This document shows positions 40,697 through 46,181 of a DNA stretch of 49,839 bases, one piece after another. The stretch lies in assembly GCA_039028495.1 (NCBI GenBank), contig JBCCHY010000003.1, positions 1 to 49,839 of the forward strand. Direction: 5' to 3'. The notes under the pieces were generated by a model. The model searched no databases. It saw nothing but the letters and a program-made list of their open reading frames with translations, and had not been told where the DNA came from. A program made the position numbers and the translations under genes. The first letter of the stretch is position 1; each line of letters starts with the position of its first letter. Source of the DNA: Patescibacteria group bacterium (GTDB taxonomy: Bacteria > Patescibacteriota > Saccharimonadia > Saccharimonadales > VXPC01).

Positions 40697-41929
40697 ATGT
40701 ATGATGGTGAGACACTACCTGTTTTAGTTAAAGATCAGGCAATACCTGGGCTTTCTCATGTTATAGCCTTACATGTAGAAGTGGCCGATATGCGCCAGCG
40801 TGTTGAGAATATTGATACTCAGCGAGCACATGAGGTAAAACTTGGTGAAAGAATCCATGATGCAAGGAGGGAAGCCATACTCACCAGTGCCTTATTGAGC
40901 GATATACTTGGTCTTACCGTAAGTCCTGATGATGAAGAGCCTGATACAGATACTAACGACACTACCGATTCCCGTATTGTCAATAGACCTCCAACTGTTG
41001 ATCAGATTACGGAATCTGCTTTCTTTTTTAGGGCACCCAGACGAGGCGTGCACGCTTTGCAGAGAAGAAACTTGATTAATGATGCTCTGCTTGATGCCGC
41101 AGCGAACAGAGGTCTCAGGAAGAGAGCCTGGCAATCAGCACATCCTGACACTAATGAAGGCGCAAAAGTAGAAAAAACAGCAAAGGCCATAGGTGCATCT
41201 GACCGTGACCCTAAAACGGCTATACTGACAATGTTATCAGCCGGGGTGAAACCTACCGACGAGATGAACCTCACTGAGTTACGTGACGAGCGGTACCTAC
41301 TTCAGCTTTATCTTGACTCTACGGACGTGAATTATCGTAGTAAGCGTGAGGCGACTACTGCCGCTAAAAGAGAGGTAGACATGGCCGGATGGCGTGTTCG
41401 CTCAGAAGCCGCAGGACATCTGTTAGGCTTACTTGTCGGTAGCGATGAAGAAGTGAGGGAGTTTGCTGAGAGTAATCTAAGATATAACGATGTTTATTCG
41501 ATAGAGAGATTTAACTCTGACATAGTCAAAATATGGACTCTATTAGAACGTATTAAGCTTGGAAACCCAAGAGAAGCCAAGCGCTACGACGAGGCAAAAG
41601 TAGACGAGATATTGGAACATATCTGGGAAGTACATGCACCAAGCGATAAAAGAAGAGTCTCTAGCCCACCACATACGAACTGGCTACCAATACTTATTGA
41701 TGCTTTAGAGCTCATGGACCCAGGTGAGTCCGAGGGCGTCAGATACACTTACTTTGAACCACCAATTAAGCTTACAAGAGTGCCTCAACCAACTAGATTA
41801 CCAAGCAGGAATACTGAGCGAGGTTACCCATACGACAAAGATCACTACTGCAAAGATAGTCAAGAGACTGATTCAAACATAATTTATAGCAACAAAAACG
41901 ACAAGTACGAGGAATACTACAATACATGA
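40697..41929 (+). CDS. Hypothetical protein
   Basis: 410-aa ORF; extended -10 (TGtTATAAT) 7 nt before the ATG. Confidence 0.7.
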   Translation: MYDGETLPVLVKDQAIPGLSHVIALHVEVADMRQRVENIDTQRAHEVKLGERIHDARREAILTSALLSDILGLTVSPDDEEPDTDTNDTTDSRIVNRPPTVDQITESAFFFRAPRRGVHALQRRNLINDALLDAAANRGLRKRAWQSAHPDTNEGAKVEKTAKAIGASDRDPKTAILTMLSAGVKPTDEMNLTELRDERYLLQLYLDSTDVNYRSKREATTAAKREVDMAGWRVRSEAAGHLLGLLVGSDEEVREFAESNLRYNDVYSIERFNSDIVKIWTLLERIKLGNPREAKRYDEAKVDEILEHIWEVHAPSDKRRVSSPPHTNWLPILIDALELMDPGESEGVRYTYFEPPIKLTRVPQPTRLPSRNTERGYPYDKDHYCKDSQETDSNIIYSNKNDKYEEYYNT

Positions 41930-42585
41930 GTTACGAAATTGGCAGAGTTCAGTCTGAGTTTCTGACGAACTATCAGATACGTGCTTGCCACAAACTTGCA
42001 ATCAATGCTTTGGCCGAAAAACTCTCTGAGCGCAGGACTAGAGCAGAAGTAGAGGCCTTTGTAGGCCCACTCGGGACATACATGCTACGTACTCGTAACC
42101 CTAACCGGGCTGTAGGTAGACGTTATCGAAGTGGACAAGTATTCTTTAATGTACGAACTGTACTCACCACAGACACCAATAATCGTGTTATTGGGTGCCT
42201 GCATAGCGCTAGTAATGTCTCTGGTAGTCCTATTGAGCGTAAAGCAAAGCTGTCCACAAGACCCGATAAGATTTACCACTGGGTTTCAGGGATATCAGTG
42301 GATCCTTCACACTGGGGGCAAGGTATAGCTACAAGGATGATGCTAAAGTCACTAGAAGGCGTAGATGACCGTAGAAGTGTTACTGCATACCCTTCACCAT
42401 CAGAAGATCCTGAGTTTGTACATAAACTGATAAGCTTAGGTTTTGTAGTGCCTGAACCAGCATACGGTGTAGCTGATCTGTACGGGCCAGGTAGTGAGCC
42501 AGCTACACAGATTAGATTAGTCGCACCTGTCCCAGAACTTAGAGCAAACCTCGAAGCACGCTCTAGATTTGGGCACAATCCATAA
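41926..42585 (+). CDS. GNAT family acetyltransferase
   Basis: ISVDPSHWGQGIATRM (acetyl-CoA motif A) and LGF near the C-terminus. Confidence 0.75.
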   Translation: MSYEIGRVQSEFLTNYQIRACHKLAINALAEKLSERRTRAEVEAFVGPLGTYMLRTRNPNRAVGRRYRSGQVFFNVRTVLTTDTNNRVIGCLHSASNVSGSPIERKAKLSTRPDKIYHWVSGISVDPSHWGQGIATRMMLKSLEGVDDRRSVTAYPSPSEDPEFVHKLISLGFVVPEPAYGVADLYGPGSEPATQIRLVAPVPELRANLEARSRFGHNP

Positions 42586-42604
42586 GTTTTAGAATTTTAT
42601 ATAT

Positions 42605-43210
42605 ATGTATTATCATGTAGCTATGATCAGCACACATAGAGCACTGACTGAATTGCATCATGCTCTGGCCGCAAAAAGAGATATAGCTCGTGAAGCCGGT
42701 ATTACAAAAGGAAGCAGCAGTCGTGAAGCTGCAGTGGTTGTTGAGGGTGGAGGACGCTCACTACTTGACCCTGCCATCTTAGGTGCTACGAGGCTAATAG
42801 TTAGGTCATTCGCAAAGGCATCATTCCACGATACGTACTGGATTAGTATGCGACTATATGATGATGAAAGAGAGTTAGACATAGCCCCAGATCAGTATGC
42901 TCTTGATGGAGACCCTAAGTCTGGAGAATACTTTATGTTTACCACCGGATCGGCCTTGCCACGAATAGCTAGAGCAGACCTACCTGCAGCTCTAGCATTG
43001 CGGGCCAAGTGGCTCGAAGAAAATACACTAGAAAGAAATAGATACGATACTCTCGGGAACCTAGTTCATGCCTCCCAGGACGAACTTATATTGGCACCTG
43101 AGGTTAGCGAGTCAAACGGTCTTCAGATTGTTCGTTCAATTGCGGCTATTCCCTTAGACAACTTATGCATTAAACGCCATATACCTGAAACGCTCTACGG
43201 CAACCTGTGA
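42605..43210 (+). CDS. Hypothetical protein
   Basis: 201-aa ORF; start may be ATG 42623. Confidence 0.6.
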   Translation: MYYHVAMISTHRALTELHHALAAKRDIAREAGITKGSSSREAAVVVEGGGRSLLDPAILGATRLIVRSFAKASFHDTYWISMRLYDDERELDIAPDQYALDGDPKSGEYFMFTTGSALPRIARADLPAALALRAKWLEENTLERNRYDTLGNLVHASQDELILAPEVSESNGLQIVRSIAAIPLDNLCIKRHIPETLYGNL

Positions 43211-43271
43211 CAATATCACATAAGAGCTGTTAGCTCATCAGACAGTATCCTCGCTTTTACTTTAATAATTC

Positions 43272-43299
43272 TTGACTTCCGTTCTTTGCCTGTTATCAT
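43272..43299 (+). promoter_or_regulatory. Promoter of the trpS leader
   Basis: TTGACT-16 nt-TATCAT with TGn extension; leader ATG 8 nt downstream. Confidence 0.7.
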
Positions 43300-43307
43300 T
43301 ATTGTCA

Positions 43308-43391
43308 ATGAAAATTCTACAGAACAGCTATCTCTGGCTGCTACTCACTTCACGACCTGTGGCGGCTTATTCTGTTTGCTTTAAAAACTAA
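43308..43391 (+). CDS. Putative Trp leader peptide MKILQNSYLWLLLTSRPVAAYSVCFKN
   Basis: 27 codons, single TGG at 43335-43337; contains the antiterminator arm TGTGGCGG (43358-43365). Confidence 0.65.
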   Translation: MKILQNSYLWLLLTSRPVAAYSVCFKN

Positions 43392-43413
43392 CTAGAACTA
43401 AAACACATTGACT

Positions 43414-43441
43414 AATCCGCCACACTAAGGCGGATTTTTTT
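43414..43441 (+). terminator. Attenuator terminator upstream of GNAT-trpS
   Basis: AATCCGCC-ACACTAA-GGCGGATT followed by a T run. Confidence 0.85.
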
Positions 43442-43462
43442 AATACTACAAGGAGAAATAAC

Positions 43463-44072
43463 ATGAAATATCAAATAATGAACAAACAACCTGATCTAGC
43501 AGAAGCAGCAAAGGTTGTTGCACAGGCAATGCCAGGCCTAGAACCAGATGGGGTAGTCGCTGATACGGCGGCGCACATTAACGGTAACTTTATTCAGTCA
43601 ATACATTCTAATAGCGGCTTAGTGGGATTTGCAAATTACGAAGTAACGGAGTGTTTTTGGCGATAGACTACTATACCTAGCGGGGAGAGCAGTATTACCC
43701 AGACACCAAGGCAAGGGGTTGGGCACTAAAGCTTTAAAGAATGCTATAAATGAAATAGCACCGGACTACCTATTCACCGTCAGCAGAAACCCATCGATAG
43801 TCAAGATGATGTTGAAAGCTTCAGGTGCATCTCTAAGTCATCTATACCCAATTGCATCGACAATTGAACACAGAGTTATAGACTTTTGTGCAAGAGGTGC
43901 TGGCGTACCACATTCTACTAGACCATATCATTTCAACAGGTACGGTGAGAGCGGCTTACAAGGTGATTCTCTACCCATGAGCGACGATCCAAACCTAGCT
44001 CCCTATTTTTCTAACGCCACATTAAAGTCGACTGGCATATTAATGATAATCAAGTGTAGCGAAAGGTGTTAA
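43463..44072 (+). CDS. GNAT-family acetyltransferase split by a +1 frameshift (programmed frameshift or pseudogene)
   Basis: AAGGAG SD; frame 0 ends ...TGT TTT TGG CGA TAG (43666); the +1 frame from 43659 reads GDRLLYLAGRAVLPRHQGKGLGTKAL (motif A) to TAA 44072. Confidence 0.7.
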
Positions 44073-44073
44073 A

Positions 44074-45099
44074 ATGATAGCAATGAATGACACAATACTA
44101 ACAGGTTTACAGCTCACAGGTAGTCTACATCTAGGTAACTATCTTGGCGCTGTCTTGCCCATGGTTGACATCCAAAAGGCTGGCCATACAGTCTATATGT
44201 ACGTTCCAGATATACATGGTTTGACAGCTGATGTAGACTACTCATCTTTCTACGAGAGGACTGTCGAGTTTTTACGTTTGTACGCAGCCGCAGGCTTAGA
44301 TCTGACAAGCGATGACCTAATCCCGTTTAGGGGTAGCCATGTGCCAGCACATTCAGAGCTTGCATGGATTCTGACCTGCTTTACAGGTATGGGCGAGCTA
44401 GAGAGGATGACACAGTACAAAGACAAGTCATCGAGAGCTAATACCCACATAAGTTCAGGCCTACTAACGTATCCAACGCTTATGGCAGCAGATATACTCC
44501 TATACGGCGCAAAGTATGTGCCTGTTGGCGAAGATCAGCAGCAGCATCTCGAGCTCACCAGAGTACTAGCTAGGAGGCTAAACAACAGGTTTGGCGAATG
44601 CCTGGTAGAGCCTGCCGACCATGAAGCAAATCTGGCCTTTTTTGAGACGGAGAATGCCGTCCGTATCCGCAGCCTCTCTGACCCGACCTCAAAAATGAGT
44701 AAAAGTGTGTCAGACCCCAAAGGCACTATAGGTCTACTAGATGATCCCGAAGATGCTCGCAAGAAGGTGATGTCTGCGGTTACAGACGATCTAGGTTCGA
44801 TTAGCTTCGACTTCGTAAACCAGCCCGGTATATCTAACTTGATTCAGATCAAAGCGCTGCTAGAGGGCAAAAAAATAGCTGATGTTGCCGCAGAATATGT
44901 TGGCCACACACAGTACGGCCAGTTTAAATCAGATGTAGCCGATGCTGTCGTGGACTTCTTGAGCAACCTACAAGCTGAGTTTGCTAGGATCAACCCTGAC
45001 TCTGTAACTAAAGAACTACATACGGGTGAGGAAAAGGCCAATGCAGCTGCAAACGAGACACTCTACAGGCTACAGCGAGCAATAGGCCTCAGGCAGTAA
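44074..45099 (+). CDS. trpS: Tryptophanyl-tRNA synthetase
   Basis: HLGN (HIGH), YPTLMAADIL, VPVGEDQQQH, KMSKS. Confidence 0.97.
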   Translation: MIAMNDTILTGLQLTGSLHLGNYLGAVLPMVDIQKAGHTVYMYVPDIHGLTADVDYSSFYERTVEFLRLYAAAGLDLTSDDLIPFRGSHVPAHSELAWILTCFTGMGELERMTQYKDKSSRANTHISSGLLTYPTLMAADILLYGAKYVPVGEDQQQHLELTRVLARRLNNRFGECLVEPADHEANLAFFETENAVRIRSLSDPTSKMSKSVSDPKGTIGLLDDPEDARKKVMSAVTDDLGSISFDFVNQPGISNLIQIKALLEGKKIADVAAEYVGHTQYGQFKSDVADAVVDFLSNLQAEFARINPDSVTKELHTGEEKANAAANETLYRLQRAIGLRQ

Positions 45100-45100
45100 A

Positions 45101-45991
45101 ATGCCCAAAGACTCTAAACTCCAGGTCTACGAAATAGGTGACGATGAGATCGGCAAGCGAGCAGACTTTGTCGTAGCCAGAGAGATCCCAGAACTCAGTC
45201 GCAGCTACATCAAAAGGCTCGCCCATGACGGTAAACTCACATTTGAGGGCCGAGAGGTACAGGCAGGCTATAAGTTAAAAAGACCAGGAAAGCTCATACT
45301 AGATTATGATCCGGCAGTCCTACAGAACATTCCAGAGATAGAGCTCGACATAATATACGAAGATGACGATGTGCTCGCTATCAACAAACCAGCTGGCCTG
45401 ATAACACACTCTAGGGGTAGGTATTGGGATGAACCATCTGTTGCCTCGTCTATACGCAAAAAACTGACCAGAAGCGGCAGCGACATCAGAGCCGGGATTG
45501 TTCATAGGCTGGATCGAGCGACTAGTGGTGTAATCATTTGCGCCAAGACGGCTGATGCGCAGGGTTTCCTACAAAAACAATTTGAAAAAAGGACTGTCCA
45601 AAAAGAATACATAGCAATATGTAACAACGTAGAGCTAAAGGCAACCTCTGGTCTCATAGATATGCCTATAGGACGTAACCCTAAGAGACCAAGTACATTC
45701 AGAGTAGATGCCAAAGGTAAGTCGGCGCAAACAAACTACCAGGTGCTGAGTACATCAGACAAGTATATGATGCTCAGACTGTCTCCCAGGACAGGCAGAA
45801 CGCATCAGCTGCGGGTACATATGGAGAAACTTAACGCACCAATCGTTGGTGACACACTATATGGTGGGAAAGAACACGACAGACTCATGCTGCATGCCCA
45901 TAAACTTAAGCTTGAACATCCAAATGGCTCGGAACTAGTACTCGAAGCTCCGCTGCCACCAGAGTTCCAGGAGTTACTACATGACAATTAA
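45101..45991 (+). CDS. rluD: RluA/RluD family pseudouridine synthase
   Basis: N-terminal S4-like domain, NKPAGL, GIVHRLDRATSG, TGRTHQLRVH. Confidence 0.9.
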   Translation: MPKDSKLQVYEIGDDEIGKRADFVVAREIPELSRSYIKRLAHDGKLTFEGREVQAGYKLKRPGKLILDYDPAVLQNIPEIELDIIYEDDDVLAINKPAGLITHSRGRYWDEPSVASSIRKKLTRSGSDIRAGIVHRLDRATSGVIICAKTADAQGFLQKQFEKRTVQKEYIAICNNVELKATSGLIDMPIGRNPKRPSTFRVDAKGKSAQTNYQVLSTSDKYMMLRLSPRTGRTHQLRVHMEKLNAPIVGDTLYGGKEHDRLMLHAHKLKLEHPNGSELVLEAPLPPEFQELLHDN

Positions 45992-46181
45992 GTATGTTGC
46001 TGCAACTCTTATAGCCGCCTGCTTGAGTATATATGGTGATTTATTCCTGAGGCGCGTAAAGAAGCTGTATAAGAAATACTCCGACTGCGCATCGGAAGGA
46101 AAAATCGCTATATATGCCAAGAGGGGCGATGGTGCGATCAGCTACGCTGAGCGGCAGATCAGCCTGCCAGGAGGTTATTAA
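45981..46181 (+). CDS. Small hypothetical protein with N-terminal hydrophobic segment
   Basis: 66 aa; fills the gap exactly between rluD and the holB-like gene. Confidence 0.5.
   Translation: MTIKYVAATLIAACLSIYGDLFLRRVKKLYKKYSDCASEGKIAIYAKRGDGAISYAERQISLPGGY

Follow-up and report, generated by a model that had tools for sequence, protein, structure and literature searches.

A leader element lies upstream of trpS, which encodes tryptophanyl-tRNA synthetase, in the window, that is, the whole 49,839-nt stretch of contig JBCCHY010000003.1 from a Patescibacteria group bacterium (order Saccharimonadales). Judged from its sequence, it is probably a classical ribosome-mediated transcription attenuator on a leaderless transcript, which would control trpS through a single Trp codon. 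The original prediction, made from the letters of this stretch, had proposed ribosome-mediated attenuation here, and family conservation, covariation, and the match between leader codons and downstream genes argue for it. We observed the anatomy, conservation, covariation, and codon-gene match directly. The kind of mechanism is already known, and the element is an instance of it in a little-studied group, a phylum for which our literature searches turned up no description of it. Its parts in the window are as follows.

43272-43299 (+), promoter: -35 TTGACT at 43272-43277, 16-nt spacer, TG-extended -10 TATCAT at 43294-43299
43308-43391 (+), leader open reading frame (ORF): 27 codons plus stop, ATG at 43308-43310, stop at 43389-43391, peptide MKILQNSYLWLLLTSRPVAAYSVCFKN
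43322-43327 (+), 5' arm of the outer protector helix, in codons 5-7: GAACAG pairs with CUGUUU at 43372-43377 in the minimum free energy (MFE) fold
43335-43337 (+), the sole Trp codon TGG, codon 10 of the leader and the proposed regulatory codon
43336-43344 (+), 5' arm of the inner protector (anti-antiterminator) helix, overlapping the Trp codon: GGCUGCUAC pairs with GUGGCGGCU at 43359-43367 in the MFE fold
43358-43377 (+), region 2, the antiterminator 5' strand: core TGTGGCGG (43358-43365) plus an extension; also the 3' strand of both protector helices
43404-43424 (+), region 3, the antiterminator 3' strand: takes in the terminator 5' arm and the first loop bases (CCGCCACA at 43417-43424)
43414-43443 (+), intrinsic terminator: 8-bp G+C-rich stem AATCCGCC/GGCGGATT (43414-43436), 7-nt loop, T7 tract

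In a promoter scan, the promoter was the top promoter-like site within 42000-46000, with agreement at 10 of 12 consensus positions. The leader ORF is in frame with the program-listed ORF 43272..43391. Only 8 nt separate the end of the -10 from the leader ATG, with no Shine-Dalgarno (SD) motif in between. This spacing puts the predicted transcript start on the ATG or 1-2 nt upstream. Promoter spacing and the missing SD motif argue for the earlier claim of an ATG near the transcription start. The core of region 2, TGTGGCGG, is the exact reverse complement of CCGCCACA, which comprises part of the terminator 5' arm and its first loop bases; this perfect complementarity had been claimed before, and the sequence bears it out along with the other coordinates given there, such as those of the TGG and the stop. 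The 141-nt leader stretch folds with an MFE of -31.6 kcal/mol, compared with -19.0 +/- 3.1 for 200 shuffles (z = -4.0), none of which folded as well. In this fold, region 2 is held by both upstream protector arms and the terminator is formed. A protector stem had been predicted and is present, although in a slightly different register, namely that of the two helices listed above. When the terminator 3' arm was withheld from folding, the antiterminator formed in all five seed leaders of the covariance model described below.

A blastn search of the leader against 60 relatives gave four partial matches, all with the same architecture on inspection. We built a covariance model (R1) from five leaders, took matches at E <= 0.01, and built a second model (R2) from 76 matches. 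Of 151 genomes sampled from the order Saccharimonadales (TM7), R1 found a match in 77, mostly with one copy per genome and in some cases with tandem pairs. R2 matched 98 of the 151, a figure that includes some artefacts, either on the reverse strand or bare terminators. The unpublished genome G037 adds one to each tally, and no other result rests on it. The window copy, itself a seed of R1, reaches 118 bits with that model and 87.5 bits with R2. For the counts below, we used 72 distinct leaders with an ATG ORF, that is, the matches after removal of two reverse-strand overlaps, a duplicate, the bare terminator L187, and L190, where no ORF opens with ATG. The reverse-strand overlaps L038:1535-1669(-) and L032:1461-1595(+) were rejected as model matches. 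Terminator-only or ORF-less matches were dropped before peptides were counted (L187, L217 [2], L221, L223 [2], L227, L229, L230, L232, L233 [2]).

A conserved-motif pattern, which catches 14 of 36 known leaders, was scanned over 185,579 genomes, one per species, and returned 97 stretches. Among the 80 of these that were listed, 67 are titled Saccharibacteria, Saccharimonadales, Saccharimonadia, or Microsaccharimonas, and 72 also match the covariance model. Seven of the 80 are titled with unrelated phyla, none of which match the model, and another is truncated by the end of its contig. When 151 genomes from across the phylum were sampled, matches outside Saccharimonadales were weak, and two of them (L194 and L195, from another Patescibacteria family) look real. 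These two carry a GFWFY leader, MENNISQNNFFFGFWFYNRLSP, and a terminator upstream of a GCS2-like ligase gene (PF04107). With an AAGAG ahead of the ATG and some 14 nt between it and the -10, they are probably not leaderless. Tandem leaders on the same strand, 150-450 nt apart and sometimes with a small ORF between them, were seen in L046 (G074), L032 (G021), L156 (G121), L034 (G040), L024 (G047), L199/L171 (G065), and L196. Rfam 15 holds no family for the element: positions 42000-45500 of the window gave no match above threshold and 20 related leaders gave none at the gathering score. The sub-threshold matches to ncr1575 (25.4 bits against 60) and freshwater-2 (20.2 against 49.9) are accounted for by the terminator or the SD region.

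The leader ORF is shared across the family. The first set held 36 matches, and in 34 of them an ORF of 23-30 codons begins with an ATG at one and the same position of the model; the other two are the reverse-strand overlaps. Although the RNA of region 2 (GTGGCGGTTTGTTCYGTG) is conserved, the ribosome would read it in either of two frames ('..LAVCSVRL' or '..RGGLFRVFA'), and in both frames the 3' half of the ORF stays open, with the stop shortly after region 2. A TANNNT sequence ends 4-10 nt before the ATG in 62 of the 72 leaders (mode 7 nt), TTG is found at -35 in 53, and an SD-like 4-mer in 4. This promoter spacing and the lack of an SD motif argue for leaderless translation in the family, and the start of the window leader is likewise predicted to be leaderless on promoter spacing.

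Trp is present in 69 of the 72 distinct leaders; its distance to the GGCGG core downstream is 20-22 nt in 57 of 68. Downstream, trpS follows on the same strand in 54 of the 72, within the 1.5-1.9 kb fetched, and three of the other 18 end at contig ends. Conservation of the Trp codon and of the upstream ORF ahead of trpS in relatives had been set as a check beforehand, and both were found in relatives that carry the element. Other first genes after Trp leaders encode DAHP synthase I or II, prephenate dehydratase, prephenate dehydrogenase, or anthranilate synthase I, and further ones an Asp/Glu racemase with an unknown partner, GNATs, and M20 or M15 peptidases. The scaffold is retained in leaders that lack Trp, and their codons mostly match the amino acid of the downstream gene (Phe, Tyr, Cys, Leu). 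The following loci are listed with their leader residues and the gene behind them.

L174: tandem WW, TrpE (anthranilate synthase)
L181, L218, L228: FF or FFF, PheRS
L222: single F at the fixed position, PheRS
L180: FFF, prephenate dehydratase
L212, L176: YYY or Y-rich, biopterin-type aromatic amino-acid hydroxylase
L225:1454: YYF, a DAHP synthase
L226: UGC as residue 11 in a leaderless GTG ORF, 20 nt upstream of the core, CysRS
L220: five Leu, HMGL-like (LeuA-type) gene

The PheRS behind three of the Phe leaders (L218:505-1623, L222:254-1375, and L228:543-1688) is a single chain of about 375 aa with the class II core PF01409 and an FDX-ACB domain; separate alpha and beta subunits were not seen in these three stretches.

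We then examined pairing across the family. In the first alignment, the 16 pairs of the antiterminator were 89.8% paired, compared with 39-56% when the partner was slid, and five pairs had changed on both sides. The covariation score was 0.195 as against 0.149 in shuffles, and none of 500 shuffles reached it. The pair just outside the terminator stem (columns 67/150) occurred as GC in 22 sequences, CG in 3, UA in 2, and AU in 1. In a more divergent set, 72.9% were paired versus 26-45% with slid partners, compensatory change was present at 10 of 14 pairs, and compensatory cells numbered 34 versus 17.3 +/- 3.3. The terminator was 97.5% paired, with compensatory change at 8 of 8 pairs, in an alignment fitted to this stem. 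The Phe leader L181 shows a three-way swap, GGAGG/CCUCC/GGAGG for GGCGG/CCGCC/GGCGG, on all three strands. Covariation had been suggested at the outset as a way to check the alternative structures, and both the antiterminator and the terminator covary. Single-sequence folds of many relatives pair codons 3-7 with GUUUGUUCYGU, and ACCG.CAC with GUG.CGGU.

The effect of a translating ribosome was modelled by setting a 26-29-nt unpaired stretch at each codon and computing the equilibrium probability of the terminator stem, P(terminator). For the window leader, this was 0.92 without a ribosome, 0.03 with the A site on codons 9-10 (Leu, Trp), 0.73-0.75 at W+3 and W+4, and 0.97 at W+6. A ribosome stalled at the TGG had been supposed to leave region 2 free, and the value of 0.03 at UGG suggests that, in this model, it would. 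Among 69 family leaders, 53 form the terminator in the absence of a ribosome and 64 with a ribosome at the stop. The mean P(terminator) is lowest 2-4 codons before W and climbs over W+1 to W+3, a profile that places W at the 3' edge of the antitermination window. The model is crude and ignores kinetics, so its support is partial.

The genes behind the leader in the window are as follows.

43463-44072 (+), GNAT-like acetyltransferase gene, the first after the leader, opened by AAGGAG-N7-ATG with the ATG at 43463
44074-45099 (+), trpS, TIGR00233 at 264.1 bits (cut-off 176.75), starting 1 nt after the GNAT stop
45101-45991 (+), gene for an RluD-like pseudouridine synthase (PF00849), the usual gene after trpS in relatives, with the same order in many loci

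The leader had been described as lying upstream of trpS; the next gene is in fact the GNAT-like one, which is frameshifted, and trpS comes second. The GNAT-like gene is split by a 1-nt frame change in a T5 run (43654-43658). Its second part (43653-44072) matches PF00583 at 21.3 bits and aligns with the GNAT-like ORF behind a homologous leader in L038 (E 4e-9). The frame change could be a real pseudogene or an assembly error in the homopolymer. trpS is the only tryptophan--tRNA ligase gene found in the assembly of this ultra-small genome (0.9 Mb, 96% complete), and translation of it confirmed the earlier remark that TrpRS holds one Trp. Searches of this assembly for a chorismate-binding enzyme, DAHP synthase I, and prephenate dehydratase came back empty. 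The original prediction had placed the element in a lineage generally without amino-acid biosynthesis; no genes of the aromatic pathways were detected in this genome, but many leader-bearing relatives encode genes for aromatic amino-acid biosynthesis. The 201-aa ORF at 42605-43210, on the other side of the leader, has no Pfam or NCBIfam match, and neither do several conserved proteins encoded downstream of leaders.

The transcription start, leader translation, stalling, and direction of the response are what we infer in the following scheme. RNA polymerase would start at or beside the ATG at 43308, and a ribosome would translate the 27-codon leader. When charged tRNA-Trp is plentiful, the ribosome would pass the UGG and reach the stop. 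Region 2 (43358-43377) would then be masked or recaptured by the upstream protector arms, the terminator (43414-43441) would form, and transcription would stop before the GNAT-trpS-rluD operon. In the earlier account, a ribosome at the stop covered 43358-43365; by the usual footprint arithmetic, a ribosome at 43389 would not. When charged tRNA-Trp is scarce, the ribosome would pause with the UGG in the A site, covering the protector arms (43322-43344) and not region 2. Free region 2 would pair with 43404-43424, no terminator would form, and trpS would be transcribed.

Several findings weigh against this reading, some at the level of the family and some at the level of the window copy. In the family, the inner protector helix was 72.8% paired versus 27-51% in slid controls, a moderate degree of support, and its pair 11-26 was formed in only 25 of 57 rows. 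RNAalifold recovered the antiterminator core but no consensus protector (1:2) helix, either on the model alignments or on a sub-alignment from W to the core. In the ribosome scan, P(terminator) at W was 0.3 or less in only 21 of 69 leaders and 0.5 or less in 28. Two leaders fit the match between codon and gene less well: L231 is Tyr-rich and precedes an M15/VanY-like peptidase with no evident link to Tyr, and the first leader of L196 (1153-1290, 48.9 bits with R1) has neither a Trp nor an aromatic run at the regulatory position. The latter precedes an 87-aa ORF, after which a second, Trp-type leader stands before trpS. Finally, the codon after UGG is UUU in 53 leaders and UUC in 2, a constraint that the simple model leaves unexplained.

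The residue before Trp is Phe or Tyr in 51 of 69 leaders, Phe follows in 55, and Thr is next in 44, with all four Thr codons in use. Before UGG, Tyr is encoded by UAU in 26 leaders and by UAC in none, and Phe by UUU in 16 and UUC in 9. The proposed helices do not account for the synonymous bias beside UGG. One possible, though rather unlikely, extension of the attenuation model is that the [FY]-W-F-T context causes an unusually strong pause or shift at UGG. The element would then be a hybrid of arrest-peptide or codon-context stalling and attenuation, in which one Trp codon suffices, and the scaffold would be re-aimed to Trp, Phe, Tyr, Cys, or Leu through about one codon position, as the main amino-acid sensor of a lineage that has very few regulators.

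The points that concern the window copy lead to the rival explanation that survives best, namely that the family mechanism is real but the window holds a relic without regulatory function, either in decay or acquired recently. The four other genera (G001-G004) in the taxonomic family of this bacterium have trpS at 43-51% identity, and none of the four has a leader near it, even with filters off (best E 0.43). R2 gave a weak match in G004 (L232), apparently just a terminator, since it lacks an ORF. In G003 (L148), a homologue of the first GNAT gene of the window (41926-42585) stands directly before trpS. Given this order, the segment 42605-44072, which comprises the 201-aa ORF, the leader, and the broken GNAT gene and is missing from G003, looks like a lineage-specific insertion. 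A leader followed by a GNAT gene recurs in other families (L027, L028, and L038). The Trp codon of the window copy lies 26 nt before the GGCGG core, two codons further upstream than the 20-22 nt usual in the family, and its motif is LWLLL instead of [FY]WFT. The gene directly behind it is frameshifted. An exact 25-nt scan of metagenome contigs for the window leader gave no match, and a degenerate scan gave one contig (L196), which is not a close relative, so that no close relative of the window copy was found in these contigs. On the other side, the promoter, the ATG, the open frame, the Trp codon, the protector arms, the perfect 8-bp antiterminator core, and the T7 terminator are all intact, the copy scores well with both models, and its switch works better in silico than that of most family members. 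The T5 frameshift, as noted, could be an assembly error. We retain this explanation on account of the insertion-like segment, the displaced Trp, and the missing [FY]WFT motif, and consider it to have a small probability.

A second rival holds that the leader is an arrest peptide of the TnaC kind, which would sense free Trp or another signal through the nascent chain and not the supply of charged tRNA-Trp. TnaC-type peptides have a conserved Trp at a fixed spacing from the arrest site at the end of the ORF and control Trp catabolism. The conservation of residues beside Trp goes beyond the codon itself and speaks for such a peptide, and the W-F of the leaders presumably resembles that of TnaC. 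However, the C-terminal half occurs in two frames and the spacing from W to the stop varies, which leaves no fixed arrest geometry. The genes downstream (trpS, trpE, DAHP synthase) supply Trp and do not break it down. The Phe, Tyr, Cys, and Leu leaders keep the scaffold and swap the codon, which fits codon sensing, and the excess of TTT over TTC after W points to a constraint on nucleotides rather than on the peptide. We regard an arrest peptide as quite improbable.

It is also conceivable, at a still lower probability, that the terminated RNA of about 135 nt or the 27-residue peptide is a trans-acting product and that trpS is expressed independently. In favour of this, promoter and terminator both belong to the element, its RNA is strongly structured, and trans-acting RNAs and peptides derived from attenuators are described for Sinorhizobium in the available portions of PMC6614838 and PMC7298713. 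Against this, the element always stands directly upstream of amino-acid-related genes on the same strand, with a codon content that tracks them, and peptide conservation is limited to about four residues, the C-terminal half not being conserved as protein. Moreover, a trans role would add to cis attenuation and not replace it.

The least probable of the explanations is a riboswitch- or T-box-like element with an incidental ORF, in which no translation would be needed to detect tRNA, a ligand, or a protein. T-boxes are defined by a Stem I with a specifier loop and by an invariant UGGN bulge that binds the acceptor end. The sequence UGGUUUACCG presumably bears a loose resemblance to the T-box UGGNACC core. 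In Firmicutes, trpS is under T-box control according to the consulted part of PMC1262725. Like those T-boxes, the element would give more synthetase when tRNA-Trp charging drops, with a terminator/antiterminator output; unlike them, its sensor would be the translating ribosome and not tRNA binding. No T-box or riboswitch of Rfam was matched at E <= 10 within 42000-45500, nor at the gathering score in the 20 related leaders. Only about 27 nt lie upstream of the UGG, which leaves no room for Stem I. Leaders with a different specificity have Phe, Tyr, or Cys codons (UUY, UAY, UGC) in place of UGG. This is how a codon behaves; a UGGN that binds the acceptor end would be expected not to vary. The ATG at a fixed distance from the -10 and the ORF kept in two frames also stand against an incidental ORF. 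A reading in terms of TRAP was considered and set aside.

The attenuation model can be compared with known leader systems. As in E. coli trpL and related leaders, so far as these are treated in the available text of PMC4007540 and PMC1183508, a short translated ORF would carry codons cognate to the controlled pathway, and three alternative pairings (protector 1:2, antiterminator 2:3, terminator 3:4) are combined with a stop just after region 2. Unlike trpL, which has two Trp codons, the element has one, has no SD motif, and has a predicted leaderless start, and it would control an aminoacyl-tRNA synthetase in a genome without detectable Trp biosynthesis. The Rfam family Trp_leader (RF00513) was not matched at E <= 10 in 42000-45500 of the window, nor at the gathering score in the 20 related leaders. 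Classical attenuators are known for pheST in gamma-proteobacteria, and in Streptomyces they have been predicted ahead of trpS and leuS, as given in the part consulted of Seliverstov et al., 2005 (PMC1262725). Those before trpS in Streptomyces share with the present element the leader-peptide attenuation of a synthetase gene, trpS included. The present leaders belong to another phylum and to what appears to be an unrelated leader family. Also unlike the Streptomyces and pheST cases, a single RNA scaffold serves here, throughout an order, targets that concern Trp, Phe, Tyr, Cys, and Leu. In Deinococcus deserti, 14 leaderless leader peptides were predicted before tRNA synthetase and amino-acid genes, including a Cys leader before cysS, in the accessible part of de Groot et al., 2014 (PMC4007540). 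There, the 5' end of the transcript is the leader start codon, as mapped by differential RNA-seq of transcription start sites in the same source, and here this is predicted from promoter spacing; the lineage and the sequences are different.

To our knowledge, almost nothing is known about gene regulation in Patescibacteria (the candidate phyla radiation, CPR). We found no description of such an element in Saccharibacteria, TM7, Patescibacteria, or CPR in the full-text literature, a coverage that leaves out subscription-only papers. A perspective on the group (PMC11665869) has neither 'attenuat' nor 'leader' as a word stem. If the attenuation model is true, about half or more of the Saccharimonadales genomes sampled would share a conserved cis-regulatory switch responsive to amino acids. 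It would imply that transcription and translation are coupled on leaderless mRNAs in Saccharimonadales, and would suggest that an episymbiont that takes Trp from its host tunes its sole TrpRS to the charging of tRNA-Trp. The leaders could also serve as a native inducible element for the genetic tools under construction for Saccharibacteria.

Furthermore, the leaders may act as labels that tie unknown genes to Trp or aromatic supply, such as those for GNAT acetyltransferases, M20 and M15 peptidases, an AstE/AspA-like deacylase, and two further groups of genes. The first of these encodes a small protein (about 55-70 aa) whose members have an N-terminal motif in common (..EAReiL..h.V......D.Rs..ei..); it lies between the leader and trpS in many relatives, matches no Pfam family, and is absent from the window. 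It is the first ORF after the leader in L025, L031, L034, L039, L024, L152, L155, L158, L165, L166, L172, L184, L186, and L189. The second is a gene of the Asp/Glu-racemase family paired with one for a protein of about 290 aa or about 395 aa, the former without a Pfam or NCBIfam family. This pair was found repeatedly under a Trp leader (L024:1652-2536, L032:477-1334, and L153:270-1139, each with the next gene; L219; L224), and such pairs are candidates for Trp salvage genes.

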